This document shows positions 784-26,069 of a DNA stretch of 64,000 nucleotides, piece by piece. The stretch lies in the NCBI GenBank assembly GCA_963700145.1, contig OY969474.1, positions 4,416,001-4,480,000 of the forward strand, given 5' to 3'. Position numbers and translations under genes: made by a program. The stretch is from an uncultured Acidobacteriota bacterium. Lineage in GTDB: Bacteria; Acidobacteriota; Thermoanaerobaculia; Multivoradales; UBA5704. Numbering within the stretch: position 1 is the first letter of the stretch; the number at the start of each line of letters is the position of its first letter. The notes beneath the pieces were generated by a model, which saw only the letters and a program-made list of their open reading frames with translations, was not told the origin of the DNA and ran no database searches.

Positions 784-1536
784 TCAGACCCGGCTCTCGG
801 TCTGCTGGTGCGCCGCGGCGAGCGGGAGGTCCGCCACCACGGCGCGGGGGTTGTCTTCGGTCAACTGCTGCGCCACCTCCTCGCCCCAGCGCGCGGCGAC
901 CTCGGCACGGGCGCGGCGCAGCCCGGGCGGGCGGCGGTAAGGGTCGTGCGCGTCGCTGGCCAGGAAGTGCGCCAGCCCGGCGTCGATCAGGCGGTGCGCG
1001 GCGGCCTCCGGACGGTGCCCGAAGTCGCCGGTGACGCTCATCGCCGTCACCTGCATCGCCGCCCCCAGCTCGACCAGCCGTTCGACGAGCGGCGTGTCCT
1101 CGGCCAGCCAGGAGATCAGCTCCGGGTGGGCGAGGACCGGCCGCCACCCCGCGATTACCAGCTCGTGCACCAGCTCGATCGCCTGCCGCGCGCGGCAGGC
1201 GCCGTCGAACTCGACGAGCAGGTAGCGCGAGCCGGCGAGCGGCTGGAGACCGCTCTCTGGCAACCGCGCCAGCTCGGCGAGGAGCTGCGAATCGATGCGG
1301 ATCTCGCCTCCCGGCAGGATGCGCGGCCGTGTCCCCACCGCCGCCTGCAGCTCCTCGCGCAACCCGTCGAGCGCGGCGGCGTCGCAGTTCCACCAGACGC
1401 CGCGCCGCTGGTGCGGTGTCGCGACCATCGCCTCGCACCCTTCGGCCGCCGCCAGCCGGCACATCGCGACCGCCATCTCCAGGTCGCGGGCGCCGTCGTC
1501 GATGCCGGGCAAGACGTGGCAGTGCAGGTCGATCAT
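784..1536 (-). CDS. CpsB/CapC-family PHP tyrosine-protein phosphatase (polysaccharide biosynthesis)
   Basis: MIDLHCHVLPGIDDGA, ATPH, LAHPE, LASDAH motifs; lies directly downstream of the Wzc-like kinase. Confidence 0.93.
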   Translation of the reverse strand: MIDLHCHVLPGIDDGARDLEMAVAMCRLAAAEGCEAMVATPHQRRGVWWNCDAAALDGLREELQAAVGTRPRILPGGEIRIDSQLLAELARLPESGLQPLAGSRYLLVEFDGACRARQAIELVHELVIAGWRPVLAHPELISWLAEDTPLVERLVELGAAMQVTAMSVTGDFGHRPEAAAHRLIDAGLAHFLASDAHDPYRRPPGLRRARAEVAARWGEEVAQQLTEDNPRAVVADLPLAAAHQQTESRV

Positions 1537-1558
1537 GTGCCGCGGCCCCTGACGGATC

Positions 1559-3883
1559 CTACGCCGCCGAGCCGGCCGAGCCGGCCTGGGGCTCGCTCTC
1601 GTAGGCGCTGTAGGACTCGTAGTAGCGGTAGCGCTTGCCGGCGGCCCCCTGCGCGCTGCGGAAGCGGTTGAGCACCGCCCCCAGCACCTTGACCTCTGCC
1701 TGGCGCAGCCGGTCGCGGCAGGCCCGCGCGTCCTCGCGCGTCACCTTGCCGGCGCGCAGCGTCAGCACCACGCCGTCGGCCCAGGCGCCGGCGACGATGG
1801 CGTCGGTCACCGGCAGCACCGGCGGCGTGTCGACGACCACGAAATCGAAGCGCGCGCGCACCTGACGCAGCCATTCGCGCATGCGGTCCGAGGCCAGCAG
1901 CTCCGAGGGGTTCGGCGGGATCGGCCCGCACGGCGTGATCCACAGGTTTGGCACCTCGGTGCGCAGGATCACCGCCTCCGCGTCGGCGCCCGCGGTCAGG
2001 TGGTTCACCAGGCCGAGCCGGTTCGAGACCTTGAAGATCTGGTGCAGGCGCGGCTTGCGCAGGTCGCTGTCGACGATCAGCACCTGCCGCCCGAGCTGCG
2101 CCAGGACGACGGCCAGGTTGGTGGCGGTCGCGGTCTTCCCCTCCGAGGCGCCGGCCGAGGTGACGGCCACCACCTTGAGCTCGTCGGCCGAGGAGAGCAG
2201 CAGCGCGGTGCGGAGCGAGCGGTAGGCCTCCGAGATCGGCGTCCGCGGCCGCTCGTGCGGCACGAGCTCGATCTGCGCCGGCTCGGCCTTCTTCTTCTCC
2301 AGCCAGGCCACCGGCGCCCCGCCCGCCGCGCGGGCGCGCGTCGCGGCGTCCCCTTCGGCGCCGTAGGCGTGGCCGTAGCCGTAGCCGTAGCCGCCGCCGT
2401 ACTTCTTCCCCACCTCGGTCAGGTCGGGGATGACCGCCAGGACCGGCATCTCCAGGCGCCGCTCGATCTGCTCCGGGGTCTTTACCGAGCGGTCCAGGAA
2501 CTCGATCAGGAACGCGCAGCCGATCCCCAGGAGCAGGCCGATGAACAGGCCGTAGGTCAGGTCCTGGCGCAGCGAGGGGCGGAACGGCCCTCCCGGCACC
2601 AGGGCCCGGTCGATGATGCGGATGTTCGAGTCGCGGGTGTCTTGCAGGCGCGCCGCGACGTCGGTCTCCGACTGCTTCCGCATCAACTGGTCGAGCATCT
2701 CGCGGCGGCTCTCCACCTCCACCTTGAGGTTGGTGAACTCCACCGCCGCCGAGTTCTGATCGATCGCCTGCGACTTCACGTTGTTCAGCTCGTTGACCAG
2801 CGCCTGCTCCTGGCGCAGCGCCGTCTGATATTCGGCGTAGGCGCTGCCGCGCGCGATGGAGACGCGTTCGTCGATGACGCGGTTGAGGTCCTGGCGCCCC
2901 TTGTCGATCTTGGCCTTGAGCTCCACCATCGACGGCCATTCGGGCTTGAAGGTCTTGAGCTTCATCTCGTACTCGCGCTCCATCCGGATCTGCTCGGCGC
3001 GCTGGTCGCTCACCAGACCGGGGGAGTGACTGTCGGCCACCGCCTCCTTGGGAGCGCTCAGCACCTCCTGGTGCTGCGCCTGCTTCTCCATCCGCCGCCG
3101 CATCGCGTCCATGTAGTCCTTGTTGAGCGTCTCGAGGCGCTGCAGCACGACGTTAGAGCCGGGATCGATGGCGACGATGTCGCTGCGCCGGCTGAAGGCC
3201 TGGAGCCGGGTCTCGCGGTCCTGGATCTCCTGCTTGAGGCCCTCGACCTGCGCCCCCAGGAAGGTGGAGGCCTTGCCGGCGGTGGTGGAGCGGCTCTCGA
3301 TGCCGAGGTCGATGAACTCCTCGGCGAAGGCGTTGGCGGCGCGCGCGGCAAACTCCGGATCGGCCGAGCGGTAGGAAATGTTCACGAGCTGGGTGTTGGC
3401 GATCGGCTGCACCGCGAGGCCGCCGCGCAGCCCTTCCGCAAGCTGCCCGAGCACCGCCTCGTCGTCGGCGGCCGAAGGCGCGGCGCCCTTGGCCGGCTGC
3501 CGCCCGGCCTCGCGATTCGTGCGCGGGTCGCTCATCAGGTCGAGATGGTGGACCACGCGCTCGGCCAAGCCGCGGCTCTCGAGCAGCTTGTACTGGGTCG
3601 GGTAGAACTCCATGTTGTAGTAGTTCTCGAGCCAGGGGTTCTGGTTGCTGCCGACTAGCGGCGTGAGGCTCCGGCGCTCGATCTGCAGTTGCGCGCGCGC
3701 CTCGTACTCCTTCGGTGTGATCAGGAAGTGGATCACCCCCGCGGTCAGGCTGGTGGCGCAGAGCACCGCCACGAGCCGCCAGTGGCGGCGCACCATTCCG
3801 AGGTACTCGGCGATGTTGAACTCCGACTCCGCCGCCGGCGCGGCCGCCGGCGCTTCCTCGAACGGGTTGTTGAGCGCGCTCAA
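1559..3883 (-). CDS. wzc: Wzc/GumC-family polysaccharide co-polymerase and tyrosine autokinase
   Basis: Two TM segments around a coiled-coil domain; Walker A SAGASEGKT, LIVDSDLR, VVVDTPP; C-terminal Tyr cluster RYRYYESYSAY. Start re-called at TTG 3883, overlapping the wza stop (TTGA). Confidence 0.92.
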   Translation of the reverse strand: MSALNNPFEEAPAAAPAAESEFNIAEYLGMVRRHWRLVAVLCATSLTAGVIHFLITPKEYEARAQLQIERRSLTPLVGSNQNPWLENYYNMEFYPTQYKLLESRGLAERVVHHLDLMSDPRTNREAGRQPAKGAAPSAADDEAVLGQLAEGLRGGLAVQPIANTQLVNISYRSADPEFAARAANAFAEEFIDLGIESRSTTAGKASTFLGAQVEGLKQEIQDRETRLQAFSRRSDIVAIDPGSNVVLQRLETLNKDYMDAMRRRMEKQAQHQEVLSAPKEAVADSHSPGLVSDQRAEQIRMEREYEMKLKTFKPEWPSMVELKAKIDKGRQDLNRVIDERVSIARGSAYAEYQTALRQEQALVNELNNVKSQAIDQNSAAVEFTNLKVEVESRREMLDQLMRKQSETDVAARLQDTRDSNIRIIDRALVPGGPFRPSLRQDLTYGLFIGLLLGIGCAFLIEFLDRSVKTPEQIERRLEMPVLAVIPDLTEVGKKYGGGYGYGYGHAYGAEGDAATRARAAGGAPVAWLEKKKAEPAQIELVPHERPRTPISEAYRSLRTALLLSSADELKVVAVTSAGASEGKTATATNLAVVLAQLGRQVLIVDSDLRKPRLHQIFKVSNRLGLVNHLTAGADAEAVILRTEVPNLWITPCGPIPPNPSELLASDRMREWLRQVRARFDFVVVDTPPVLPVTDAIVAGAWADGVVLTLRAGKVTREDARACRDRLRQAEVKVLGAVLNRFRSAQGAAGKRYRYYESYSAYESEPQAGSAGSAA

Positions 3884-4746
3884 AAGAAGGACTCCTTGAC
3901 GACGACGACGTCGCCATTGTGCAGCTCGAGGTCCGGCTCCTTGCCGGCGAGGATGCGCTTGTAGTCGACCGTCAGATCGCCGCCCGCCGCCGCGGCACCG
4001 GGAGCGGCGGCCGCCGCGGCGGCGCGCCGGACGACGATGCGGCTCGCCGCGCGGTCGGTCAGCCCGCCGGCGCGCGCGATCGCCGCCAGCAGCGTCACCC
4101 GGTCGGTGCTCTTGAAAGCGATGGCGCCCGGCGTGGCGACCTCGCCCAGGCAATAGATGGTGACCTCCGAAGTCCCCGGGACGTTGATCAGGTCGTTGGC
4201 GATGATCGGCAGATTGACCTTGGGATCGGCCCGCACCAGCAGGTCGTGAGCGTTGACCACGACCTGATCGGAGAGGCCGTTGTCGGCGTGCCGCAGGATG
4301 TAGATCTTGCCGCCGTGTCCCTCGCTCAGGCCGCCGGCGGCGGTGATCGCCTCGAGCAGCGTCCAGCGGCCGGAGAAGGCGAGGGGCCCGGCTTGCCGCA
4401 CCGCGCCGATGACGGTGATCGGCTTGGAGCGGAACTCGAGCACGTCGACGTTGACGGTGGCGCGCTGCACGTAGCGCGAGAGCAGCTCGCGGAGGCGCGC
4501 CTCCAGCTCCTCGGCGGTCAGGCCGACGGCGGCGACGTCCCCGAGCTGCGGCAGGTTGATCATGCCGTTCTCGCCGACCCGCCGCTCGCCATTGAGCTCC
4601 GGCACCTCGTAGACCTGGATCGCCACCAGGTCCTTGGGACCGATGCGATAGCCGGGCGCGCTCGCCGGCGCCTGCGCGAAGGCAGGCGGCAGGAGGGCTA
4701 GAGAAACGGAGGCCAACAGACTGAGGACGGCAGTTCTCGACTTCAT
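3880..4746 (-). CDS. wza: Polysaccharide biosynthesis/export protein (Wza-like, Poly_export + SLBB)
   Basis: YRIGPKDLVAIQV...GMINLPQLGDVAAVGLT; two SLBB repeats (TLLEAITAAGGL, TLLAAIARAGGL); signal peptide; ends VKESFF. Confidence 0.9.
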   Translation of the reverse strand: MKSRTAVLSLLASVSLALLPPAFAQAPASAPGYRIGPKDLVAIQVYEVPELNGERRVGENGMINLPQLGDVAAVGLTAEELEARLRELLSRYVQRATVNVDVLEFRSKPITVIGAVRQAGPLAFSGRWTLLEAITAAGGLSEGHGGKIYILRHADNGLSDQVVVNAHDLLVRADPKVNLPIIANDLINVPGTSEVTIYCLGEVATPGAIAFKSTDRVTLLAAIARAGGLTDRAASRIVVRRAAAAAAAPGAAAAGGDLTVDYKRILAGKEPDLELHNGDVVVVKESFF

Positions 4747-4823
4747 AGGCTACTCGCTGTGACGCAACAGTTTACGACGAGAGGGACGGGAGTGCAAAAG
4801 AGCTATCGCAATGCGCGCCTAGG

Positions 4824-6098
4824 CTACCACTCACCGCGTCTCCCACCCAGCGTCACGCCGATGCCGAGGAAGGTGACGCTGCGGTCGAGGAGCGGCAGGT
4901 TCGAGTCGAGCTCGAGGCGGCGCGCGGCGACGGTCAGCCGCGCCGAGCGGCCGAGCCCGAAGCCGAGCCCGGCGCCGTAGGCCGAGGTGTCGTCGCGGCG
5001 GTCTGGAACGCCGGGTGCGGCGGCCGTGTAGTCGTGCCGGCCGATCTCGCCGAAGACGGTGAAGTCGGTGCGCCAGCCGAGCCGCACCTGCCCCCCGATC
5101 CCCAGCCGGTCGTCAGTGAAGTACGGGTAGTCGCCGGCCAGCGAGTAGACGAGGCCGCGCCCGCCGTACACCCAGATCGGCAGGCGGCTGTCGCTGTTGA
5201 AGCCGGCCTCGATCGACGCCGTGGTCTCGTCGAAGGGGACGAAGCTCGAGCCCTGCCGCGGCTCGAGCGAGCGCTGCGCCGCCTCGAAGCGCAGGTAGTG
5301 CTCCTCGCGGTCCCACCGTACCTCCAAGACCGGTGAAGTGCCGGCGTTCGAGAGGTCCAACCCATCCTGCTCGAACTCGGCCTGCGAGCGCTCGGCACCG
5401 AGCCCGACGGACCAGCCGCGCGGCATGTGCCAGCGCAGGCCGGCGCGCAGGTAGCTGGCGTCGCGATCGAGCAGGTCGAGCGGCGCCTGGGCGGGGTCCT
5501 TCACCACGTTGCGCGTCCGCGCGACCTCGCCGGAGGCGAAGACCGAGATGCGGCCGGTCGCCTTGAGGTCCAGGGAGAGCCGCCCGCGCTCGCGCCGCAA
5601 GTGGACCTGCTCGGGCACCTCCAGCGAGGCCAGCCGCTGCTGCTGGTCGCGCTCGGCCAGCGCCTCCACGGTCAAGCGGTTGAAGAAGCCGAAGCCGAGG
5701 ACGCCATAGCGGCCGTTGACGCTGCGCCGCTCCTCGAGCTCCTGCCAGGCGACGTATTCCGGCAGCACGTGGGCCGCCCAGATGACCTTCGGTCCGGTGC
5801 GGAGGTAGGCGCGGAGGCCGGCACCGACGGTGCCGGTGAGGTCGGAGGTCTTCTCGTCCTCGCCGGGGGTGCCGAAGGCGTTGTCGACGTACTGCACGTC
5901 GTAGACGCCGATCCAGGGAGTGACGCGCACGACGCCGAGCCGCAGCGGCGCCGCGTCCATCTTGCCTTCCAGCTCCTCCTGGCGCGAGACCGGCCGCCCG
6001 GCGGGGCCGCCGGGCTCCGTATACTGATCGAATTGAGCCAGGGCGGAGCGGGCCTCGACGAGGAGGAGGGCGAGCGCCAGCAGGCGCGCCGTGCGCAA
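4824..6098 (-). CDS. Outer-membrane beta-barrel protein associated with the EPS locus
   Basis: C-terminal half of track ORF 4824..7529; signal peptide LRTARLLALALLLVEARSALAQ, amphipathic beta-strand pattern. Start uncertain (TTG 6098 or 6119, ATG 6140). Confidence 0.72.
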   Translation of the reverse strand: MRTARLLALALLLVEARSALAQFDQYTEPGGPAGRPVSRQEELEGKMDAAPLRLGVVRVTPWIGVYDVQYVDNAFGTPGEDEKTSDLTGTVGAGLRAYLRTGPKVIWAAHVLPEYVAWQELEERRSVNGRYGVLGFGFFNRLTVEALAERDQQQRLASLEVPEQVHLRRERGRLSLDLKATGRISVFASGEVARTRNVVKDPAQAPLDLLDRDASYLRAGLRWHMPRGWSVGLGAERSQAEFEQDGLDLSNAGTSPVLEVRWDREEHYLRFEAAQRSLEPRQGSSFVPFDETTASIEAGFNSDSRLPIWVYGGRGLVYSLAGDYPYFTDDRLGIGGQVRLGWRTDFTVFGEIGRHDYTAAAPGVPDRRDDTSAYGAGLGFGLGRSARLTVAARRLELDSNLPLLDRSVTFLGIGVTLGGRRGEW

Positions 6099-6128
6099 GC
6101 CGTTCGGGTGTCGCGCCAAAGCGCGCGC

Positions 6129-7538
6129 ATGATACGTCATCGCGTCCTGGTCCCCGCGGCGGCGCTCGGCCTCCTGCTGCTCTGGGCGCCCCTTCCCTTC
6201 GGCAGCGTGACACCGGGGGCCGTCGCCGCGCTGGAGGCCGCGTGCTTCGTCGCGTTCGCGCTCGCCGCCGCCACCGCCGCGGACCTGCGGCCGCTGCGCC
6301 GCGCCTGGCCGGTCGCCGCCCCGCTGCTCGGTCTGGCGCTCTGGGGGCTGGTGCAGTCGGCGCCCTGGCCGGTCAGGGTCGTCGAGGCGGTGGCGCCGGA
6401 GCAGGCGTGGCTGGCGCGCGGCGCGACGGAGGCCCTGGCCGCGGGGGCCCACGGCGGCGAGGCGCTGGCGCTCGGCTCCGGCGCGCCGCGGCCGGCGCTC
6501 TCGCTCGCCCCGTCGGCGTCGCGCGCCGCGGCCCTCGCCTGGGCGTCGATCGCCGCGGCGCTCGGCGCGGCGGCCCTCGCCGGCGCCGAGCGGCAGGGGC
6601 GGCGCCTCCTCGCCGCGGCACTCGGCGCGGGGGCGCTCGCCCAGGTCGTGTTTGGCGCCCAGGCCTGGTTCGCGCGCTCGGAGACGATCTGGGGTGTGGA
6701 CGTGCCGGGCGCCGCCACGCGGCTGCGCGGCACCTTCGTCAACCCCGACCACGCCGCCACCTATCTCGGCATCGCCCTGCCGGCCGCCTTCGCCTGGGGG
6801 TGGTGGGCGGCGCGGCGGGCGCGCGAGGAGCCGCACCTCGAGCGCCGGGTGCTCTGGCTGGCGCCGCCGGCGCTCGTCTGGCTCACGCTCTTCGCGGGCC
6901 TCGCCTTCACCGGCTCGCGCGGCGGCCTGGTGGCGGCGGTGACCGGCGCGGCGGTGCAGGGGCTGCTTCTCGCCGTGCGCGGGCGGCTGGCCGGCCGCGG
7001 GGGCTGGCGCTTCGCACCGGTCGGCGTCGTGGCGGCGGCGGTGGGGGTGGGCGTGGTGGCCGTGATCGGCTTGCAGGAAGGGCTCGGGCGAATCCTCGCC
7101 ACCACGCAGTACGACGTCTCCTGGGGCGCGCGCCGGGCGGCCTACGGCGCCACGCTCGACCTCTGGCGCCGCTTCCCCTGGACCGGCAGCGGCCTCGGCA
7201 CCTTCCGCGAGGCCTTCCCGCTCGTCCAGCCGCCCGGGCTCGCCGGCACCTGGCGCCACGCCCACAGCGACCCCGTCGAGCTGCTCGCGACGGCGGGGGT
7301 CGTCGGGGCGCTCCTCCTCGCCGCGGCGCTCGTCCCGCTCCTGCTGCGCCTGGCGCAGGTCCTCCAGCGCGGGCACCGCTCCGAGGACCGCGCCGCCGCT
7401 CTCGCCGCGCTCGGCGCCCTCGCCGCCCTGGCCGTCCACGAGGCGGTCGACTTCGGCCTCACGATCCCCGCCAACGCGCTCACTCTCGCGGTCGTCGTCG
7501 GCGCTGCGCTCGGGGCGCGGACCGAGCACGCCCGCTGA
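6129..7538 (+). CDS. O-antigen ligase/Wzy_C-family membrane protein (copy 1)
   Basis: Polytopic membrane protein from ATG 6129; RLRGTFVNPDH, TGSRGG, GSGLGTF, HAHSD motifs. Confidence 0.88.
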   Translation: MIRHRVLVPAAALGLLLLWAPLPFGSVTPGAVAALEAACFVAFALAAATAADLRPLRRAWPVAAPLLGLALWGLVQSAPWPVRVVEAVAPEQAWLARGATEALAAGAHGGEALALGSGAPRPALSLAPSASRAAALAWASIAAALGAAALAGAERQGRRLLAAALGAGALAQVVFGAQAWFARSETIWGVDVPGAATRLRGTFVNPDHAATYLGIALPAAFAWGWWAARRAREEPHLERRVLWLAPPALVWLTLFAGLAFTGSRGGLVAAVTGAAVQGLLLAVRGRLAGRGGWRFAPVGVVAAAVGVGVVAVIGLQEGLGRILATTQYDVSWGARRAAYGATLDLWRRFPWTGSGLGTFREAFPLVQPPGLAGTWRHAHSDPVELLATAGVVGALLLAAALVPLLLRLAQVLQRGHRSEDRAAALAALGALAALAVHEAVDFGLTIPANALTLAVVVGAALGARTEHAR

Positions 7539-7542
7539 CGGT

Positions 7543-9159: not shown

Positions 9160-9188
9160 GCCGGTAGTCTAGTGTTCACCTGCGCCTC

Positions 9189-10385: not shown

Positions 10386-10412
10386 AGCCCGCGGGCGGTA
10401 CGATCTGCGCGC

Positions 10413-11750: not shown

Positions 11751-11751
11751 A

Positions 11752-12827: not shown

Positions 12828-12915
12828 GTGATCGAGCGTTCCATCAGCTGCGCGAAGCTTAGCCCAACCCTGGCCTGGCGCTTGGACCGGCGTGAAAAAG
12901 GCTTGCACGGGGTCG

Positions 12916-12942
12916 GGGAAAGCCGGGAAAGCCGGGAAAGCC
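12916..12942. repeat. Perfect 9-bp tandem repeat GGGAAAGCC x3
   Basis: Units at 12916, 12925 and 12934, between the SARP gene and the response regulator. Confidence 0.85.
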
Positions 12943-12963
12943 GACATGGCAGTTTTCTCGAAC

Positions 12964-13842: not shown

Positions 13843-13987
13843 CGCTTTCCCCGCCGCCTTCCCTGCCGTTCCCATGTAGGCAGACTAGACACCGCGGCGG
13901 CGGGGCTCTGCCGGCCGGACGCTTCACCTCGTGTCGGCCTCCCGCGAGGACGCGCTGTCGGCGCCCGTCCTACGGCGCGTCGGACAT

Positions 13988-14004
13988 CTGACGGCGTCCT
14001 GACG
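13988..14004. promoter_or_regulatory. Candidate SARP operator: CTGACG direct repeat at 11-bp spacing
   Basis: CTGACG at 13988 and 13999 in the divergent SARP/C25 intergenic region. SARPs bind short direct repeats one helical turn apart. Confidence 0.45.
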
Positions 14005-14024
14005 CCGGTATGCCACGATGCGCT

Positions 14025-14066
14025 CACGAAACGGCCAGAGGTGCCCACGAAACGGCCAGAGGTGCC
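14025..14066. repeat. Perfect 21-bp tandem duplication CACGAAACGGCCAGAGGTGCC x2
   Basis: Copies at 14025-14045 and 14046-14066, upstream of the C25 gene. Confidence 0.9.
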
Positions 14067-14133
14067 AATGCTCGACGCGGGATGTGAAGTGTGCGAGAAT
14101 TCACCCTCAACAGCCGGGAAGGGATGACGTGCA

Positions 14134-17100: not shown

Positions 17101-17898
17101 GGCGCCGGCTCGGTCAGCTTCCTGCCGACGCTCTACGTCGCCACCGGCAACCAGATCTTCTTCGCGCCGGCCGACCCGCTGTTGGCTGACGCCGACGGCG
17201 ACCGGGTGCCGGACGTGGCCATCGGACGGTTCCCGGTGCGGACGGCGGCGGAGCTGGACGCGATGATCGCCAAGACCTGGGACTACGCCGGCAAGGACTA
17301 CAACGGTACGGCAATCATGGCGGCGGACCTCTTCGACCAGCGCGCCAAGATGTCGTTCAAGTTCCACAGCGACCAGATCCTGGAGAAGCTCGGCGGCGAC
17401 TGGACGGCGCAGAAGGCCTACCTCGACGACATCAGCCTGGCCGACGCCCGGTCGCGGCTGCTGGCCTCGCTCAACCAGGGGACGGCGCTGACTTCCTACG
17501 TCGGGCACTCCGGGCCGACGGCGTGGACCTTCTCGGGCCTCTTCTCGAGCGGCGACGCGACCGGTCTGAACAACGCGGGCCGGCCGACGGTCGTCGTGCA
17601 GTGGGGGTGCTGGAACGCCTACCACGTCGAGCCGCTCTACAACACCTTGGGGCACAGCTTCCTGCTCTTCGGCGACCGCGGCGCGGCGGCGGTCCTGGGC
17701 TCGGCGACCCTGATGGAGACGGCGTCGGCGCAGCGCCTCAGCGACAAGCTGGCGCCGCTGATCGGTGCCCCGGGCCGGAGCCTCGGCAGTGCGGTGACGG
17801 CGGCCAAGCAGGAGCTGGCGCGCGAAGCGCCGGAGCTGGCCGACGCGATTCTCGGTTGGACGATCCTCGGCGACCCGGCGCTGGTGATCGAGCCGTAA
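14134..17898 (+). CDS. Secreted C25-family (gingipain/PorU-like) cysteine peptidase with a Cys-rich N-terminal region
   Basis: Signal peptide; ADYLVIAH, VEDVYAQFGHG, YVLLVGGD, PDVAIGRFPV, YVGHS (His), QWGCWN (Cys), WTILGDPAL; 20 Cys in the mature N-terminal ~430 aa. Confidence 0.88.
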   Translation: MNTHKSILVGVCALALWALAAPVQAVIQCSSPTQCCLDDLNDAGAVCTANDVTFVLVGLGTQNDGCTDTSDTVSIFLGAIVKNTTAGTRYDIGMWISTDGDPNGDGALTGQCAREMLTPASPTTYVDNGIAPTCLGSDGNLLDLGRAIAGPNGTEANGYYLTAESAGVQDACGDLAKGSSTGCDTNGDGIWDDSVMNFTTAVTVPCDDIDNSGGGTSGDGFVNLPTCASWGQQEDEVDDDGDDLCESANEIENGTPSKCNCEDSNSTIPVPRLACNVPQTVCSPASIQVGQSTTCTVRMQNNSTCTPVIVTTPSNERERCGTGSFVRFRTDFPEALGTVSNVLINGVAPTVPGDGVVTTGDDHILWTPRSGPIYSENSAGVMGPGDVETLTYTFTATAPSTGTTTMSTQGWWSNNSLFTPEVAQAALTCSALLTTPVTVASFRADRTGGVTNFEWTTATEVGNVGFNLLAQTAKGWERINREPIASKVVDSTLPQSYRYEASGLKATAFRLEEIDLAGTVVPRGEFTLGQPYGVRPRPQAIDWQTPAVQGGKKFAAAAAKGGGSVGGAVDSVNLLVGQTGIQRVSYEALAGAGLDLASVNANHIALLNRGAAVPLRLAAPAGNGKKPSSFGPGGHVEFWGEALDTLYTGTNVYTLRREPSSSRSIGTDARTPSGTPPAFYMETTRVERNAQYSFGSPIADPWYDTRMLAFSAPASFSFTVNADDYVAGAAPATLTVELWGSSVWPAAPDHHLRVALNGVQVADATFDGRAAHTVTVPVPAGVLQAGANSLTLTVPGDLGTQFDLQSLESYSLSYPRAFAARGGRLEFTSAGPAFRVTGLGSSAVVAYRLDAGGPVQLTGVQVQASGGGYAATFPGGAAAARYAVADASGVSAPGLQAGRPQTDITSGNADYLVIAHPSFTGGLGSLVNLHQSAGRSVKVVNVEDVYAQFGHGIFDPQPIRDYIAHAVNRMGTEYVLLVGGDSYDYRNYLGAGSVSFLPTLYVATGNQIFFAPADPLLADADGDRVPDVAIGRFPVRTAAELDAMIAKTWDYAGKDYNGTAIMAADLFDQRAKMSFKFHSDQILEKLGGDWTAQKAYLDDISLADARSRLLASLNQGTALTSYVGHSGPTAWTFSGLFSSGDATGLNNAGRPTVVVQWGCWNAYHVEPLYNTLGHSFLLFGDRGAAAVLGSATLMETASAQRLSDKLAPLIGAPGRSLGSAVTAAKQELAREAPELADAILGWTILGDPALVIEP

Positions 17899-17934
17899 CC
17901 TTCAAGGGCACGGCGCTTCCTATGACGTCCTGCG

Positions 17935-17971
17935 ACGCCCGACGGCCCGGTCCGTCGGGCGTTTTCATTTT
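17935..17971 (+). terminator. Intrinsic terminator after the C25 gene
   Basis: Stem ACGCCCGACGG/CCGTCGGGCGT, 6-nt loop, followed by TTTCATTTT. Confidence 0.7.
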
Positions 17972-17974
17972 CAT

Positions 17975-19858
17975 ATGTCCGGCCTGCTGCTGATCCATCA
18001 CCGCGACGGGCGGCCGGTCGAACGGCCGCTCGCGGCGCGGCTCCTGGCGGCCCTCGACCACCGCGGCCCGGACAGCCGCGACATCTGCTGGGTCTCCGGC
18101 GCCGCCCTCGGCCACCAGCATTTCTGGACCACCCCCGAGGAGATCGGCGAGCGCCAGCCGCTCGGCGACGCGGCACGCGGCGTCCACCTGGCGCTCGACG
18201 GCCGGCTCGACAACCGCGAGGAGCTGATCGCGGCCCTGCCGGACGATCCCGGCACGGAGCTCTCCGACGCCGCGCTCGTGCTGCGCGCCTATCTCACCTG
18301 GGGCGAGGAGCTCTTCACCCGCCTGCTCGGGCCGCTCGCCGTCGTCGTGCTCGACCTCCAGCGGCGGCGGGTGGTCTGCGGCCGCGACGCCCTCGGCGAC
18401 CGCACGCTCTTCTATTACCTCGACCGGCAGGTGCTCGCCGTGGCCTCCGAAGCGCACGCGCTGCTCGGCCATCCGAGCGTGTCGTCGCGGCTCGACGAGG
18501 CGACCGTGGCGCGCTTCTACGCTCTCCGGGCGCCGGCCCACGGCGCTTCGTTCTTCGCCGACGTGCACGAGCTGCCGCCGGCCCACGGCCTCTCCGTCGG
18601 CCCCGAAGGCGCCCGGCAGTGGCGCCATTGGAGCCCGCGCGTCGAGGCGTCGCCGCACCGCCGGAGCGACGCCGACCACGTCGCGGAGTTCCGCGCGGTG
18701 CTGCGCGAGAGCGTGCGCTGCCGGCTGCGTGCCGACGGGCCCTCTGCGGTGCTGATGAGCGGCGGCCTCGACTCGACCTCGGTCGCGGCGCTCGCCGCGC
18801 GCGAGACGGCCGACGCGGACCCGAGACGGCGGCCCCTCGCGGTCTCCTGGGTCTTCAACGAGCTGACGTCGATCGACGAGCGCTCCTACATGGATCCGGT
18901 GGTCGAGGCGGCCGGCCTCGCAACCCTGCGCTTCGCCGGCGACGACGCCTGGCCGCTCGCCGATCCCGAGACCTGGCCGCACCACCCCGACGCGCCGCTC
19001 GAAGGGCTGTTTCGCCGCTTGCGCCAGCGCGCCTACGCCGCCGCGGCCGGCGCGGGCCGCCGGGTGCTGCTCACCGGGGAGTACGGCGACAACCTCTACA
19101 CCGGCCACGTCGACTGGCTGAGCGACTTGGTCCGCGAGGGCCGCTGGCTGGCCGCCGGGCGTGGTCTCCTCTCGGGTCTGCGGCCGGAGAACCGGCGGGC
19201 GCCCGGCGCGACGGTCGGCGACGCAGTCGTCCGTGCCCTGGGCGGGCGGCGGTACGAGCCGCAGGCACCCGACTGGCTGACGGTCGAGGCCCTCGCTCAT
19301 CTCGATGGCGAGGACGAGTCCGCCCCGCTCGGCCTCACCGCCGGGCGCCGCGAGCGCTGGGACGCCCTGCTCGACGGCCGCAGCTCGCAGGCCGTCGCAC
19401 TCGAGACTGCCAACGCCGCCCGCGCCGGCATCGAGCTGCGCCGTCCGTACCGCGACCGCCGCCTGGTCGAGCTCTGTCTGGGGCTCCCGGCGCACCTCGT
19501 CTTCCGCCCGGGCTGGTTGAAATGGATCTTGCGGCAGGCCATGGCGGGGATCCTTCCCGAGGCGGTCCGCCGGCGCCGCCACGGCAGCTCGCTCTTCCCG
19601 CTCTGCCGCCGCGGGCTCGTCGAGCGCGAGGCGGCGACGGCGGACGCGCTGCTGCAATCGCCCATAGCGATATGGCCGCGATACGTCCGCGCCGATTGGC
19701 TGGCGGCGGCCTATCCCCGCGCTCTCGCCGAGCAGCGCCAAGGCGTCGCGGCTGTGATAGCGTGGCGCTGTATCTGCATGGAGTTGTGGAGCCAACGCCG
19801 TCGCGGCGAGGCGTTCGTCGCCTCTGCCGTGCCGGCGGAACTTTTCATGGTGGGATGA
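17975..19858 (+). CDS. Lasso peptide cyclase (asparagine-synthetase-like, C protein)
   Basis: AsnB fold with N-terminus MSG (no catalytic Cys); SGGLDS PP-loop, LLTGEYGD, RRPYRDRRLVE; adjacent to precursor, RRE and B2. Confidence 0.88.
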   Translation: MSGLLLIHHRDGRPVERPLAARLLAALDHRGPDSRDICWVSGAALGHQHFWTTPEEIGERQPLGDAARGVHLALDGRLDNREELIAALPDDPGTELSDAALVLRAYLTWGEELFTRLLGPLAVVVLDLQRRRVVCGRDALGDRTLFYYLDRQVLAVASEAHALLGHPSVSSRLDEATVARFYALRAPAHGASFFADVHELPPAHGLSVGPEGARQWRHWSPRVEASPHRRSDADHVAEFRAVLRESVRCRLRADGPSAVLMSGGLDSTSVAALAARETADADPRRRPLAVSWVFNELTSIDERSYMDPVVEAAGLATLRFAGDDAWPLADPETWPHHPDAPLEGLFRRLRQRAYAAAAGAGRRVLLTGEYGDNLYTGHVDWLSDLVREGRWLAAGRGLLSGLRPENRRAPGATVGDAVVRALGGRRYEPQAPDWLTVEALAHLDGEDESAPLGLTAGRRERWDALLDGRSSQAVALETANAARAGIELRRPYRDRRLVELCLGLPAHLVFRPGWLKWILRQAMAGILPEAVRRRRHGSSLFPLCRRGLVEREAATADALLQSPIAIWPRYVRADWLAAAYPRALAEQRQGVAAVIAWRCICMELWSQRRRGEAFVASAVPAELFMVG

Positions 19859-20067
19859 CGATGAAGCCCGAGGAAACGTCGATGAAGCCAGAGACCGCGA
19901 GGACCTTGCTGCAGCCAGAGACCGCAGGGATGCCGGCGCCGAGCCGGCGTGCCTACACGCGCCCGCGGCTCGAGGTTCTGGGCGACATCCGGGACCTCAC
20001 TCTGGGCGGTACTCCGGGCGTCGGCGACAGCGGCGATCCGGTGAACTTCGATCCCCCTCAGCCCTAG
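19855..20067 (+). CDS. Lasso peptide precursor (70 aa)
   Basis: MTMKPEETSMKPETARTLLQPETAGMPAPSRRAYTRPRLEVLGDIRDLTL-GGTPGVGDSGDPVNFDPPQP. Leader motif YxxPxL...G-x5-T with Thr at -2; core Gly1 and Asp8. ATGA overlap with the cyclase stop. Confidence 0.88.
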   Translation: MTMKPEETSMKPETARTLLQPETAGMPAPSRRAYTRPRLEVLGDIRDLTLGGTPGVGDSGDPVNFDPPQP

Positions 20068-20074
20068 CAGGCCC

Positions 20075-20878
20075 GTGACCGGGCTCACAGACGTCCCTCC
20101 TCTGACCCGACGAGGCTCGGGCGGCGAGAGCGCCGTGCTGTTCGACGGCGAGGCGCCGGTTGCCGGGCAGACGCGCCGCGTGCGCTGCGTCCTCCAGCCT
20201 GACGTCTACCGCATCGAGATTGAAGGCGCCGGCACCTTCGCCGTGGCGCGCACCGGCGGCGCCGTCACGGTGCTCGGCGGCGCCGCGGCCGGCACGGCTG
20301 CCGGCGACACGGCCCTCGCGGCGGCGCTCGCCGGTCCGCCGCTCGCGCTCGGCTTCGCCCTCCGCGGCACGTTCTGTCTCCACGCCAGCGCCGTCGAACG
20401 GGAGGGGCGCGCGATCGCTTTCCTCGGCGAATCGGGGGCGGGCAAGTCGACTCTGGCCCGGCTGTTGGCGGGCTTGCCGGACGGCGGCTGGCGGCGGCTC
20501 GCCGACGACCTGCTGCCGGTAGCGCTTTCGCCAGGCGGGCCGGAGGCGCGGCCGCGCTTCCCCCAGCCGGGGATCGGCGGCGCCGCCGCCGCGGCGCTCC
20601 CGGAGCGCCTGCCGCTCGCCGCGGTCTACGTGCTCGCCGGGCCCGCCGGCGAGGTTGCGATCACCCCTCTGGCCGGCCGCGCCGGAGCGCTGGCGCTGGT
20701 CCGGCACACGGTGGCCGCCCGCCTCTTCGCCGCCGACCTCCTCGCCCGCCACCTGGAGCACGCCGCTGCGGTCGCCGCCGCCGCGCCGGTGCGGGTCCTG
20801 ACCTACCCGTGGACGGCGGACGCTCTCGCCGCGGTCGCGGCGGCGCTGGCGGCGGCGCTGGAGCGGCGCGATGGCTGA
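20075..20878 (+). CDS. HPr-kinase-like kinase (lasso tailoring kinase)
   Basis: LHASAV, GESGAGKST Walker A, LADDL; lies between precursor and RRE. Confidence 0.82.
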   Translation: MTGLTDVPPLTRRGSGGESAVLFDGEAPVAGQTRRVRCVLQPDVYRIEIEGAGTFAVARTGGAVTVLGGAAAGTAAGDTALAAALAGPPLALGFALRGTFCLHASAVEREGRAIAFLGESGAGKSTLARLLAGLPDGGWRRLADDLLPVALSPGGPEARPRFPQPGIGGAAAAALPERLPLAAVYVLAGPAGEVAITPLAGRAGALALVRHTVAARLFAADLLARHLEHAAAVAAAAPVRVLTYPWTADALAAVAAALAAALERRDG

Positions 20879-21164
20879 GACGGAGCTGGCCGCCGGCACC
20901 CGCCTCCGCCCGCGCGACGGCGTCCTCTTCCGCGACCTCGACGGCGAGGCGGTCCTCCTCGACTCGACGCGCGGCACCTACTTCGGCCTCAACGAGGTGG
21001 GGACCCGCGCCTGGGCCCTGCTCGCCGGCGGCGCCACGCTGGCGGAGGCCCTCGCCGTCCTCCTCGCCGACTTCGAGGCGCCGCGCGAGCAGGTCTGGCC
21101 CGACCTGCAGGCGCTGGTGCGCGAGCTCGCCCGCCATGAGCTGGTGGAAGTCGTCGCGCCGTAA
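20871..21164 (+). CDS. PqqD-family RiPP recognition element (lasso B1/E)
   Basis: DLDGEAVLLD...YFGLNEVGTRAWALL...DLQALVRELARHELV; 97 aa. Confidence 0.92.
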   Translation: MAETELAAGTRLRPRDGVLFRDLDGEAVLLDSTRGTYFGLNEVGTRAWALLAGGATLAEALAVLLADFEAPREQVWPDLQALVRELARHELVEVVAP

Positions 21165-21594
21165 GCTGGCGCGCTTCGCGGCGCTCTCCTGGCGCGACCG
21201 CGCCACCCTGCTCGCCGTCTTCGGCTCCCTCCTCGCCGTCGAGGCGGCGCTCCGCCTCCTCGGGCTGGCGCGGACGCGGCGGCTCTTCGCCCCGCGCCGC
21301 GGCCGCGTGCCGCCGCCCGCCGCTGCCGAGGTCGAGCGCCTCGCCGCTCTCGCGGTGGCCGCCTGTCGCGCCGTCTATCCCGCCGCCTGCCTGCCGCGCG
21401 CGCTCGCCCTGCAGCGCCTCCTCGCCGGCCGCGGCGCCCCGGCCGCGCTCAAGATCGGCGTTCGCCGCGACGGCGAGGAGCTGGCGGCCCACGCCTGGGT
21501 CGAGGTCGACGGGCGGCCGGTGGGGGAGCCGGCGGGGATCGAGGAGCGGTTCGCGGAGCTGCGGGACGCGCGAGGGTCGTCACACCCCGCGTGA
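21136..21594 (+). CDS. Lasso peptide B2 leader peptidase (transglutaminase-like)
   Basis: ACLPRALAL, LKIGVRR, AHAWVEVDG (Cys-His catalytic motifs); start re-called at ATG 21136. Confidence 0.92.
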   Translation: MSWWKSSRRKLARFAALSWRDRATLLAVFGSLLAVEAALRLLGLARTRRLFAPRRGRVPPPAAAEVERLAALAVAACRAVYPAACLPRALALQRLLAGRGAPAALKIGVRRDGEELAAHAWVEVDGRPVGEPAGIEERFAELRDARGSSHPA

Positions 21595-22974
21595 GGTGAG
21601 CACGATCTTCAAGGTCCGCAGCAGGATCGAGAGGTCCAGCCAGAAGCTCCAATTGGCCATGTAGGCGAGGTCGTAGCGCAGCTTGTTCTGTGCGCTCGAG
21701 TGGTAGTCGCCGTTGACCTGCGCCAAGCCGGTCAATCCCGGCGAGAGAGTGAAGCGCTCGGCGTATCCCGGCACCTCGCGCAGGTAACGCTGCACGAACC
21801 CCGGCCGCTCGGGGCGCGGCCCCACCAGGCTCATCTCGCCGACCAGGACGTTCCACAGCTGGGGAAACTCGTCGAGGCGGTAGCGGCGGAGGAAGCCGCC
21901 GATCGACGTCAGCCGCGGGTCGTCCAGCGTCGCCATCACCTCGCCGCTCGCGGTCTCGGCGTCCGCGCGCATGGTGCGGAGCTTGTGCAGCGTGAAGAGG
22001 CGCTGCCCGCGGCCCACCCGCGTCTGGCGGTAGAGGACGGGGCCCGGGGAGGTGAGGTGCACCGCCAGCGCGCAGAGCGCCATGACCGGCAGGGCGGCGG
22101 CGAAGAGGAGCGATCCCCCGGCGAGGTCGAGCAGCCGCTTGAGCGGCCGGTTCAGGAGCCACTCCGACTCGCGCACCACCTCGATGAGCGGCAGGTCGTG
22201 CACCCAGCGATAGCGCATGCGCCCGATCAGGCTTTCGAAGGGACCCGGCAGCAGCAGGATGTTGGTGTGGTCGGGGCGGGTGCCGGCGAGGCGGTCCACC
22301 AGCAGGGTCTGCCAGCCGGTGCCGGCGGGGGCGAGGATCAGGTCGTCGATGAGGCCGGCGGCGAGGAGCGCCGCCAGGTCGTCGTGCGCTCCCAGGCGCG
22401 GTCCCAGCGCCGGCTCGTCGGCGGGCGGCCGGCCGGCGGCCTCCTCGTCCGGCGTCGGCACGAACCCGACCACCTGCACGCCGAGGCCCTGGCCCGCGAT
22501 GGCGCGCGCGAGCTCCGCCGCCGCCTCGCCGGCGCCGACGATCGCCACCCGCCGCTCACGCAGCGGCACGAGGCGGAGCAGCGCCAGCCGCCAGACGAGG
22601 AGGAGGAGCCAGTCGATGAGGATGTAGAGCAACAGGATCGAACGCGGGAACTCGCGGTTGGTGAAGAAGAAGTAGCCGATCAGCACCGCGATCTGGATCG
22701 CCAGCGCGGCGGCCAGCGCGCGCGCCAGCTCGGGGCGGTTGCGCCGCCGCGGCTCGTCGTAGAGACCGAGGGCGTAGAGACAGCCGAGCTGCGCGAGAAG
22801 CACGGCCGGCCACTCGCGAAAGAGGAAGGCGAGGCGGTCGCGCGGCAGGAGCGCTTCGGTGAACGGAAGCGGCAGATGGATGCGGAGCTGGAAAGCGAGC
22901 CAGAGTGCCGCCAGCGCCAGCGCCGCGTCGCCGGCCAGGCGCAGCGCGCGCAGGCCCAGAGGGGCACGGGTCAC
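21580..22974 (-). CDS. Undecaprenyl-phosphate sugar phosphotransferase (priming glycosyltransferase, WcaJ/CpsE-like)
   Basis: N-terminal TMs; KRLLDL, YRQTRVG, KLRTM, RLDEFPQLWNVLVGEMSLVGPRP, PGLTGLAQV, YDLAY. Confidence 0.93.
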   Translation of the reverse strand: MTRAPLGLRALRLAGDAALALAALWLAFQLRIHLPLPFTEALLPRDRLAFLFREWPAVLLAQLGCLYALGLYDEPRRRNRPELARALAAALAIQIAVLIGYFFFTNREFPRSILLLYILIDWLLLLVWRLALLRLVPLRERRVAIVGAGEAAAELARAIAGQGLGVQVVGFVPTPDEEAAGRPPADEPALGPRLGAHDDLAALLAAGLIDDLILAPAGTGWQTLLVDRLAGTRPDHTNILLLPGPFESLIGRMRYRWVHDLPLIEVVRESEWLLNRPLKRLLDLAGGSLLFAAALPVMALCALAVHLTSPGPVLYRQTRVGRGQRLFTLHKLRTMRADAETASGEVMATLDDPRLTSIGGFLRRYRLDEFPQLWNVLVGEMSLVGPRPERPGFVQRYLREVPGYAERFTLSPGLTGLAQVNGDYHSSAQNKLRYDLAYMANWSFWLDLSILLRTLKIVLTSRGV

Positions 22975-24471: not shown

Positions 24472-24544
24472 CGGCGGGACGCCTCGAGCGGGCGCCGCCG
24501 GCATCGAACCCGCGCTAGCGACCGAAAACCAAGGAGCGTCACCC

Positions 24545-25507: not shown

Positions 25508-25520
25508 CAAGGAGAATCCG

Positions 25521-25877: not shown

Positions 25878-25888
25878 CGCCTGGAACT

Positions 25889-25917
25889 TTGACAACCCTC
25901 GGCGCCTGAGCTACGCT
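25889..25917 (+). promoter_or_regulatory. Sigma70-type promoter for the riboswitch-metH transcript
   Basis: TTGACA (25889-25894), 17-nt spacer, TACGCT (25912-25917); the riboswitch begins 7 nt later. Confidence 0.75.
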
Positions 25918-25923
25918 GCCTCT

Positions 25924-26060: not shown

Positions 26061-26069
26061 GCGGCCAAG

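Follow-up and report, generated by a model that had tools for sequence, protein, structure and literature searches.

Background

The usual view of a lasso peptide is that of a free antibiotic, which the cell pumps out or checks by an isopeptidase. In the genome of an uncultured Acidobacteriota bacterium (genome G000), a stretch of 64,000 nt, referred to here as the window, holds a cluster of lasso-peptide genes at positions 17975-21594 with polysaccharide genes on both sides, and the locus raises the question of what a lasso peptide would do in such surroundings. The initial annotation of this DNA proposed that the peptide is phosphorylated or nucleotidylated and is joined to, or exported with, an undecaprenyl-diphosphate (Und-PP) glycan of the flanking locus, acting as a surface decoration or signal. 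From family searches, structure prediction and comparison with related genomes we arrive at a different proposal: that the region 12964-21594 encodes a phospho-lasso pathway like that of the bsf cluster of Bradymonas sediminis, which works with an exported, PorU-like cysteine enzyme of peptidase family C25, and that the exopolysaccharide (EPS) pathway around it is separate. We put the probability of this reading at about 0.6.

Results

The lasso-peptide genes

Gene identities were assigned by Pfam and NCBIfam searches of the open reading frames (ORFs) of the window, and reading frames were picked by the GC content of third codon positions (GC3), as the GC content of the window is 0.66-0.80. 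The lasso genes all lie on the forward strand: a cyclase of the asparagine-synthetase-like type (17975-19858; NF033535, E 1.1e-111; Asn_synthase, E 2.1e-36), a 70-aa precursor (19855-20067), a lasso peptide kinase with an HPr-kinase fold (20075-20878), a PqqD-like RiPP recognition element (RRE or B1, where RiPP stands for a peptide made on the ribosome and modified after translation; 20871-21164; PF05402, E 6.2e-15, 55.7 bits against a cut-off of 23.4) and a transglutaminase-like B2 leader peptidase (21136-21594, with 21136 as the probable start; NF033537, 76.4 bits against a cut-off of 33; PF13471, E 3.8e-24). This B2 gene is the single one detected in a search of the whole genome. From the C25 gene upstream of the cyclase through to B2, the successive junctions are a gap of 76 nt, an ATGA overlap in which the start codon of the precursor (19855) overlaps the stop codon of the cyclase, a gap of 7 nt, and overlaps of 8 and 29 nt.

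The precursor leader carries the canonical motif YxxPxLxxxGxxxxxT with the Thr at position -2 (AYTRPRLEVLGDIRDLTL, followed by GGTPGVGD...), and the core, GGTPGVGDSGDPVNFDPPQP, is 20 aa long with Gly1 and Asp8 as the ring residues and a C-terminus ending in PPQP. The leader/core pattern is common to 16 aligned precursors. Among 17 precursors recovered from the clade described below, Gly1, Ser/Thr3, Gly5, Asp/Glu8 and Ser/Thr9 are found in all 17 (core pattern G-x-S/T-x-G-x-G/N-D/E-S/T), and none ends in Ser (0/17). Judged by these families, motifs and folds, which agree with the gene list of the initial annotation, 17975-21594 is a genuine lasso-peptide cluster (class II, split B), and its product is predicted to be a threaded lariat.

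The kinase was recognised by its motif and predicted fold, as sequence searches show the P-loop only and its match to TIGR04352 (HprK-related kinase A) reaches 33.2 bits, below the cut-off of 200. In an alignment of 13 orthologs, residues H103, G118, G121, G123, K124, S125, D144 and D145 are invariant (13/13). An AlphaFold model built from this alignment (predicted local distance difference test, pLDDT, 86.4; predicted template modelling score, pTM, 0.83) was compared with the PDB by Foldseek, and the best matches were HPr kinase/phosphorylase structures 1kkl_B (E 5.2e-5) and 3tqf, followed by PEP carboxykinase. The kinase BsfK of the bsf cluster is described with the catalytic motif H...GxxGxGKS...DD, as in the window kinase, and this likeness is one to the published motif description, not to a direct BsfK alignment; according to that description, BsfK phosphorylates core Ser3 on the leader-bound precursor and accepts Thr3, and the RRE enhances the reaction (PMC10368454, Duan et al. 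2023). Lasso kinases described earlier place the phosphate on a C-terminal Ser, as summarised in a review (PMC8498205). Since all 17 clade precursors have Ser or Thr at positions 3 and 9 and none ends in Ser, Thr3 is by analogy with BsfK the most likely phosphosite, with Ser9 as the alternative. A phosphorylated product, as the initial annotation had suggested, is plausible because the cluster is a kinase-type lasso cluster with a BsfK-like motif and an HprK fold.

The C25 peptidase

The gene directly upstream of the cyclase (14134-17898, forward strand) encodes a 1254-aa secreted, PorU-like C25 cysteine peptidase (Peptidase_C25, PF01364, E 1.1e-61). The earlier list of genes seen at the locus left out this gene, which ends 76 nt upstream of the cyclase, together with the two regulators next to it. 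A Sec signal peptide is present in this protein and in most of its homologs, and the motifs GHS and QWGCWN are invariant in 13/13 homologs, from which His1125 (codon at 17506) and Cys1159 (codon at 17608) are the candidate catalytic residues of the window protein. The chain ends directly after the catalytic domain. The window gene is the sole strong C25 gene in G000.

In a sequence search of the PDB, PorU (6za2) was the sole match (E 9e-6), with the His and Cys aligned. A model of residues 434-1254 (821 aa; pLDDT 81.2) again gave PorU 6za2 as the best Foldseek match (E 3.9e-27 over 803 columns, template modelling scores 0.48/0.38), and gingipains matched the catalytic part alone (E about 1e-17 to 1e-14). 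The protein falls below the cut-offs of both curated PorU models (NF033707, 144 bits, cut-off 420; NF052324, 140 bits, cut-off 450). PorU attaches cargo to anionic lipopolysaccharide. A search of the genome for PorV, in which the control itself rang weakly, gave no match, and model searches for SprA and the C-terminal domain of type IX secretion system (T9SS) cargo gave no match in the genome and none in the control genomes either. On sequence and model, the C25 protein is predicted to be an exported PorU-like cysteine enzyme.

The C25 gene is divergent from a SARP/BTAD transcriptional activator gene (12964-13875, reverse strand; BTAD, E 4.4e-26) across a 258-nt intergenic region, and a BTAD gene also adjoins the C25 gene in genomes G004 and G034. 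A response regulator with a LuxR/GerE output domain follows (12198-13007, reverse strand; Response_reg, E 2.3e-31; GerE, E 1.1e-17). Genome G002 showed no match to either the BTAD or the LuxR regulator.

Linkage of the C25 and lasso genes in relatives

The cyclase was searched over 40 relatives, and the window proteins were compared by tblastn with up to 20 kb on either side of the ten best cyclase loci. C25 is present at nine of these ten, and EPS genes lie near two of them, those of the same-genus genomes G004 and G002. When the 821-aa C25 region was searched in the same 40 genomes, 24 strong matches (at least 445 bits) were obtained, and, among the matches listed, 15 of the 24 lie within 10 kb of a cyclase match on the same contig, so counted C25-cyclase adjacency is found in 15/16 genomes with a strong C25 match, in 12 genera and 8 families. 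The same module was also found in three metagenome-assembled genomes (MAGs) labelled Thermoanaerobaculia (loci L042, L043 and L045) and in G225, from another family of the same phylum. The locus search with a cyclase alignment caught the generic SGGLDS motif and returned at least 80 loci that were mostly ordinary AsnB genes, and only L042-L061 were informative.

Gene order is not uniform: most loci have C25 upstream of the cyclase and in the same orientation, G021, L043 and L045 have it between the cyclase and the kinase, and in G009 it is divergent. C25 and the cyclase stay adjacent across all these orders. In a kinase tree (a quick IQ-TREE search with support from the Shimodaira-Hasegawa-like approximate likelihood-ratio test, SH-aLRT, only), the C25-linked kinases form one clade of 14 rows with an SH-aLRT of 99. 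In that tree one of the MAGs labelled Thermoanaerobaculia (Acidobacteriota) is the neighbour of a same-family genome, which suggests that the DNA of the window comes from this group. By these sequence comparisons, a lasso clade with C25 as its conserved extra spans at least 12 genera. The conserved accessory that needs explanation is thus this PorU-like C25 protein, to which the initial annotation gave no role. The linkage suggests that lasso maturation or function includes a previously undescribed step outside the cell, and a search of full texts (subscription journals and supplements were beyond its reach) gave no literature in which lasso peptides are tied to C25, PorU, gingipains, sugar transferases or EPS genes.

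Several points weigh against the proposed reading. The cyclase search had 45 matches beyond those listed, so some adjacencies were possibly missed, and the linkage statistics treat related genomes as independent and are overstated for that reason; the genomes are species representatives, many of them fragmented. Nine of the 24 strong C25 matches are paralogs away from a listed cyclase (four in G036, two in G037, two in G032 and one in G026), and at G036:C13 (L028/L029) a clade cyclase, precursor and kinase occur without a nearby C25 gene. With these nine unlinked paralogs and the G036 lasso genes that lack C25, C25 is neither always linked to lasso genes nor strictly required. RRE and B2 are in the locus solely in the genus of the window and in G034; G032 has the RRE alone, and nine other loci have neither in their fetched flanks. 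Within the lasso core itself, NF033535 is the best family of the cyclase and its 374.5 bits are below the 525-bit 'exception' cut-off, and the RRE reaches 48.3 bits with the lasso-specific model NF033530, below the cut-off of 70. Finally, it is from gene identities, folds, motifs and co-occurrence counts that we infer the product, the phosphosite, the export, the role and substrate of C25 and any link to a glycan.

For the loci that lack B2, the ordinary explanation would be supply from elsewhere in the genome: B2 was found elsewhere in 8/9 B2-less genomes searched, often beside a second cyclase, and only G027 had none. The idea that the C25 protein replaces B2 in these loci was considered and rejected as the main reading. 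The C25 proteins bear signal peptides and ATP-dependent lasso ring closure is cytoplasmic; in addition, a second lasso-like cluster of G000, described below, is also without B2. Clusters that lack B2, that second one included, are frequent in the lineage, a point that bears on the definition of a lasso cluster in genome-mining tools.

Further observations on individual loci are recorded here. The cyclase ortholog of G002 (G002:C6:33136-35115; L012, L040/L041) is in two pieces with one in-frame TGA and the rest of its cluster intact; it may be broken or mis-assembled. The four strong C25 paralogs of G036 are spread over contigs C43, C33 and C47, with a tandem pair on C43. In three C25-type loci the gene directly 3' of the kinase encodes an FG-GAP repeat protein of 1210-1238 aa (L035:7250-10882, L043:17309-21025 and L045:17218-20928), the family call being made by Pfam on the L035 and L043 proteins. 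An FG-GAP protein also borders the bsf cluster and is assumed to be uninvolved there (PMC10368454).

The surrounding polysaccharide locus

On the left of the regulators, the window begins with a typical export module on the reverse strand, consisting of a CpsB/CapC-type PHP tyrosine phosphatase (784-1536; CpsB_CapC, PF19567, E 6.9e-52), a Wzc-type co-polymerase/tyrosine kinase (1559-3796, with the start at 3796 or 3889; GC3 0.92; Wzz, GNVR, AAA_31/CbiA and P-loop matches) and a Wza-type outer-membrane polysaccharide export protein (3880-4746; Poly_export, E 6.9e-22, and two SLBB domains). The cpsB-wzc-wza flank reported earlier is therefore present with wzc in a different frame: the ORFs 1533-2939 and 3153-3917 were ruled out as wzc, having no families and a GC3 of 0.46-0.47, and were replaced by the frame 1559-3796. 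Next comes a 438-aa secreted protein (4824-6140, reverse strand), a possible outer-membrane barrel; the signal-peptide-like N-terminus and C-terminal Trp are the only features that favour this call of the initial annotation, and no Pfam family matches it. Two membrane proteins of the Wzy_C (O-antigen ligase/polymerase) family (6129-7538, PF04932, E 3e-18; and 10413-11750, E 1.8e-16; both forward strand) enclose a 538-aa Ala/Arg-rich protein (7543-9159, reverse strand) without a Pfam or NCBIfam match and a divergent NTP_transf_5 protein (9189-10385, forward strand; PF14907, weak at 54.5 bits). The 538-aa protein has orthologs in G004, G002 and G001 and is conserved with the EPS genes inside the genus. 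A 149-aa protein with a hydrophobic N-terminus (11752-12201, forward strand; GC3 0.92) has orthologs in G004 and G002.

On the right of the lasso genes is a polyprenyl-phosphate glycosyl-1-phosphate transferase (PGT) of the large WcaJ/WbaP type (21580-22974, reverse strand; Bac_transf, E 3e-62, and CoA_binding_3; TIGR03025, 377.9 bits, above the cut-off). As was noted earlier, B2 overlaps this priming sugar transferase: the two genes are convergent and their 3' ends overlap by 15 nt. Being convergent, the PGT is on this arrangement not co-transcribed with the lasso genes. The other two Bac_transf (PGT) genes of the genome are megabases off, at 1.43 and 3.74 Mb.

Upstream of the window, a stretch of 40 kb contains GT2 and GT4 glycosyltransferases, a true glutamine-hydrolysing AsnB, a flippase-like gene (a weak call; Polysacc_synt, E 3.4e-5, below the cut-off), an epimerase, a carbamoyltransferase, a methyltransferase and a synthase of 3'-phosphoadenosine-5'-phosphosulfate (PAPS). 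With Wza, Wzc, the phosphatase, a Wzy-family protein, the priming transferase and glycosyltransferases, the hallmarks of a Wzx/Wzy-type system are present, and the claim that the lasso cassette is nested in a polysaccharide export locus is borne out by the EPS genes on both sides of 17975-21594 and by the glycan genes upstream. The EPS genes and the PGT probably make up a separate Wzx/Wzy-type polysaccharide pathway of about 50 kb, inside which the lasso cluster lies in this genus. The polysaccharide may be sulfated, as is hinted by the PAPS synthase (L187:948-2456, equal to G000:C1:4412948-4414456), a bifunctional protein that combines ATP sulfurylase with APS kinase and is encoded immediately to the left of the window.

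At G000:C1:4376797-4385785 (L185, L186), 30-39 kb upstream of the window, the genome has a second lasso-like cluster of the kinase type. It comprises a BTAD-AAA regulator divergent from a secreted 686-aa SdrD_B-like protein, followed by two cyclase-like genes and an HprK-like kinase; the precursor lies between the two cyclase-like genes (core SGANDPPADSIVGGSTQTG), and no RRE or B2 was found in the cluster.

The arrangement gives the peptide-glycan explanation several arguments: the cluster is nested between export and polymerase genes on one side and the only nearby PGT of the region on the other, and no exporter was found in the window. Some of these observations also count against a separate EPS pathway. 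The two lasso-type clusters bracket the EPS region, the second closing its far end. The B2/PGT overlap is also seen in G004, G002 and G003, so that the junction is kept in four genus members where visible (in the search of the genus for an EPS locus free of lasso genes, G003 has no strong cyclase match, and its contig ends 275 nt past the PGT, where B2 is already visible; the contigs of G001 are too short), and it persists though the cyclases of the genus are only about 51-56% identical. Outside the genus, a WecA/MraY-type transferase (Glycos_transf_4) lies about 4-8 kb from the module, beyond GroEL, in G034 (L024:8910-11287) and G009 (L036:5582-6760); in G034 it is translationally coupled to an ortholog of the NTP_transf_5 gene of the window.

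Against the same explanation, the lasso genes of the clade stand apart from EPS genes in relatives outside the genus, an outcome that the initial annotation itself had named as contrary to its proposal: PGT, Wza and Wzc were found in 0/13 clade loci outside the genus, within fetched flanks of 10-20 kb (G034, G028, G036, G032, G037, G021, G009, G030, L042, L043, L045, L125 and L162), the Wza and Wzc profiles being single-sequence ones of lower sensitivity. For G012, G020, G026, G027, G035 and G039 the flanks available for EPS context were at most 1.5 kb. Pfam searches of the neighbours of nine non-genus loci gave mostly housekeeping or unrelated genes: GroES/EL, subtilase, DUF885, rhomboid and also a GT1 transferase in G034; GGDEF, cytochrome c, TrmO, RluD and pilin/secretin in G032; an FG-GAP protein, M48 peptidase and cyclophilin in G021 and L043; a Ser/Thr kinase and others in G037; glyoxylate-cycle enzymes in G028; a FeeM-like protein, a caspase-like protein and M12 peptidase in G030; and DUF5916 and a recombinase in L042. 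Within the genus, an 8.7-kb insertion of about seven ORFs in G004 (G004:C69, about 23055-31792; L023) splits the lasso half, with the BTAD gene, from the EPS half, with the LuxR gene; it is absent from the window.

Survey of kinase-lasso loci in the phylum

Sets of an HprK-like kinase, a PqqD protein and a nucleotidyltransferase are located near EPS loci, and the initial annotation took them to be without an assigned role. Sets of this kind (TIGR04352 and relatives) share the HprK-like kinase and PqqD protein with the window. With the kinase profile, homologs were found in 140/301 sampled genomes of the phylum. We then took about 20 kb around the best listed kinase match, one per genus, in 40 genera outside the order of the window; second matches per genus and lower-ranked or unlisted matches are outside this sample. 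The 40 kinase-lasso loci contain a cyclase in 37, RRE in 33, B2 in 31, PGT in 10, Wza in 2, Wzc in 2 and C25 in 2. The survey thus puts numbers on what was a loose observation: in this sample the sets are lasso clusters, 37/40 of them with a cyclase.

A PGT gene lies within 10 kb in 10/40 loci, against 0.42 expected by chance (114 Bac_transf genes in the 40 genomes; Poisson P 3e-11), and displaced control windows in the same genomes had PGT, Wza or Wzc in 0/20 (Fisher P 0.011). In L047, L135, L143 and L153 the PGT is inside the operon, which consists of a small PGT gene first, a gene for a protein of about 400 aa, RRE, B2, cyclase, a gene for a protein of about 380 aa, and the kinase; in L047 the two additional proteins are an FAD oxidoreductase and a PRMT-like methyltransferase, respectively. 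In these operons the small PGT resembles a tailoring gene belonging to the lasso cluster. A convergent PGT, as in the window, occurs in L156 and L160, and in a MAG of Solirubrobacterales, from another phylum (L056), the lasso genes are followed by genes for a DegT aminotransferase and a small PGT. With a quarter of the surveyed sets beside or containing a priming sugar-phosphate transferase, glycosyl-phosphate tailoring of RiPPs becomes directly testable. The recurrent small-PGT operon type was also noted for L151, L152 and L164. The PGT-linked precursors of L135 and L143 both end in ...ACL (GRSGSGGESGNPSMMQKACL and SLGSTRIESGVPAKAMACL), a Cys near the C-terminus being unusual for lasso cores.

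In the kinase tree the PGT-linked rows lie mainly away from the C25 clade, in an all-PGT clade of five, the pair L047 and L153, and the Solirubrobacterales rows, and the genus of the window is the only PGT-adjacent branch inside the C25 clade. Taken from these sequence data, the tendency of kinase-lasso loci to occur with a PGT is real and recurrent; because the tree puts the window in the C25 clade, away from the PGT-linked clades, the junction in the window would have arisen separately and is a genus-level instance of its own.

The nucleotidyltransferase, designated N in the bsf cluster, was followed in the same loci. PF14907 genes are inside at least 21/40 survey windows by the Pfam model, and a profile of 19 lasso-linked N proteins matched in 27/40 loci and 0/20 controls. 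The same profile had no match in any C25-type locus and none anywhere in G000; N is thus present in 0/15 C25-type loci vs 27/38 other kinase-lasso loci (Fisher P 1e-6, with related genomes counted as independent). The PF14907 protein of the window is encoded 7.6 kb upstream of the cyclase, and its best blastp match among the 19 N proteins is at E 3e-5 and 35.8 bits, against a median of 78 bits among the N proteins themselves. By sequence, then, the NTP_transf_5 gene of the window is an EPS gene and not a lasso-type N nucleotidyltransferase, and N is a common member of kinase-lasso clusters in the phylum that is missing from the C25 clade. Of the two modifications proposed earlier, nucleotidylation therefore has no basis, as the lasso-linked N profile finds nothing in G000. 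A preliminary statement that N is not linked to lasso clusters (0/40 with a four-sequence NTP_transf_5 profile) was withdrawn as a low-sensitivity artefact, since the Pfam model and the 19-protein profile disagree with it.

Discussion

We propose that 12964-21594, from the SARP gene to B2, forms a self-contained cluster of the kinase type, with the following order of events in its pathway. The kinase, helped by the RRE, would add phosphate to the precursor while the leader is still attached, with Thr3 as the likeliest site if BsfK is a guide; B2 together with the RRE would remove the leader after Thr(-2), and the cyclase would join Gly1 to Asp8 to give the 20-residue threaded peptide. The peptide would then exit the cell and, outside the cytoplasm, may meet the C25 protein, which could process it, attach it, or be controlled by it. 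This last encounter is the least certain step. That the C25 enzyme trims or transfers the variable tail of the peptide, and that it is the target of the peptide, are both compatible with the data.

Among the other explanations, the one that fares best is that the lasso peptide, bearing a phosphate or nucleotidyl group, is linked to the Und-PP glycan of the flanking locus or leaves the cell with it, and we regard this as unlikely. It gains from the conserved junction and the bracketing clusters described above, from the PGT enrichment across the phylum with its in-operon cases, and from the precedent of a glycosylated phospho-lasso peptide, pseudomycoidin, as reported in the review (PMC8498205). 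The association with glycan genes asserted by the initial annotation holds as an enrichment in the phylum-wide sample and in the four genus members, and fails in the 13 clade loci outside the genus. The kinase tree, the 8.7-kb insertion in G004 and the nature of the NTP_transf_5 gene also speak against it for the window, as does the difference between its PGT, which is of the large WcaJ type and convergent, and the small PGTs found inside operons elsewhere. Chemical coupling of the window peptide to a glycan is not indicated. As the placement of the lasso genes in the EPS region fits the phylum-wide kinase-lasso/PGT tendency, shared regulation or a shared envelope function is plausible.

Less probable again is a role of the lasso peptide as an inhibitor or regulator dedicated to the C25 protein, by which the exported protease would be kept latent or tuned, with C25 as the target and not the processing enzyme. 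Protease inhibition is known among lasso peptides, and the genes of certain cysteine proteases lie beside those of specific inhibitors. The tight linkage of C25 to the cyclase, precursor and kinase despite rearrangement would suit such a pair, the core is highly conserved (17/17), as expected for a fit to a conserved active site (GHS, QWGCWN), and the best-matching PorU structure, 6za2, is titled as a latent form. The G036 lasso genes without C25 and the nine C25 paralogs without lasso genes do not suit it, and a peptide made in the cytoplasm would need an export route to reach a secreted protease.

We consider it similarly improbable that the genes form an ordinary antimicrobial-type RiPP cluster that lies passively beside C25, through synteny by descent, and passively in the EPS region as a variable island of accessory genes. 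The lasso genes do diverge faster than their flanks (identity to G002 is 51% for the cyclase, 57% for the kinase and 51% for C25, vs 76% for the PGT and 87% for MTHFR), a single ancestral juxtaposition in the one clade of C25-linked kinases could explain much of the count, and the regulators and inserts between the two halves vary within the genus. Passive descent is harder to reconcile with a C25 adjacency that survives at least three gene orders in 8 families, with the loss of N that coincides with the presence of C25, and with a PGT enrichment that is seen repeatedly, in distinct regions of the kinase tree and also beyond this phylum, and is absent from the controls.

The least probable alternative, which we regard as very doubtful, is that the PorU-like C25 is a RiPP sortase: once the phospho-lasso peptide is exported, the enzyme would cut its variable C-terminal tail and pass it on to a surface glycan that bears amines (an EPS or O-antigen-like product of the surrounding locus). 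Such an arrangement would amount to peptide display outside type IX secretion, with sister clades reaching the same end by a kinase and N and/or a small in-operon PGT that would build a sugar-phosphate bridge on the phospho-serine.

Among known systems, the bsf cluster (A, B1, B2, C, D, K and N), as described in PMC10368454, is the closest to our preferred reading of a phospho-lasso pathway with C25. Both have split B1 and B2 and an HprK-like kinase with the same motif, and in the window, as in bsf, the precursor carries a hydroxyl residue at position 3 of the core (Thr3) and lacks a C-terminal Ser. Unlike bsf, the window holds no detected ABC exporter D, the genome has no lasso-type N, and the cluster adds the secreted PorU-like C25 protein and the SARP regulator; the leader has the canonical Thr(-2), whereas that of bsf is described with Ile(-2). 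In agreement with the initial annotation, a look through the genes called across all 64 kb (Pfam, including 20 further ORFs) gave neither an ABC exporter nor a prolyl-oligopeptidase-type (S9) isopeptidase, and the sole ABC-signature match in the window falls in an ORF without a Walker A motif.

Paeninodin and pseudomycoidin of Firmicutes, in which the kinase acts on the C-terminal Ser and, for pseudomycoidin, a nucleotidyltransferase adds hexose to the phosphate (PMC8498205), likewise have a kinase of the HPr-kinase family that acts on a lasso precursor, and they give a precedent for a sugar-bearing phosphate. Unlike paeninodin, the window core ends in Pro, and a C-terminal Ser is absent from all 17 clade precursors; unlike pseudomycoidin, there is no lasso-linked nucleotidyltransferase in the cluster or fused to B2, and the phylum and the gene order differ.

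PorU, the T9SS sortase of Porphyromonas gingivalis, resembles the window C25 protein in being secreted, in the His/Cys dyad and in its multi-domain fold, and differs in that the window protein scores below the curated cut-offs and its gene is part of a lasso operon; RgpB and Kgp, gingipains that also belong to family C25, are comparable in the catalytic part alone. The locus as a whole is like Wzx/Wzy-dependent capsule or EPS loci in its hallmark genes (784-11750, 21580-22974 and the 40 kb upstream) and unlike the usual ones in that a 9-kb RiPP cluster with its own regulators parts the priming transferase from the rest and a second lasso-like cluster stands at the far end of the region.

The C25 clade departs from the usual picture of a lasso peptide as a free antibiotic: its conserved extra is a large secreted PorU-like enzyme, and its loci are without exporter, isopeptidase and nucleotidyltransferase. 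The PorU-like fold also makes a covalent peptide-glycan product a more interesting prospect.

Other genes in the window

Farther right, the window encodes a CHAT-domain protein (30583-33399), a TPR protein with a weak Peptidase_C39-like match (44183-45316; E 7e-5), a caspase-like (C14) protein (56084-57739) and a SEFIR/TIR-TPR protein (59978-62902), all on the reverse strand. These genes may be concerned with defence or signalling, unrelated to the lasso finding.

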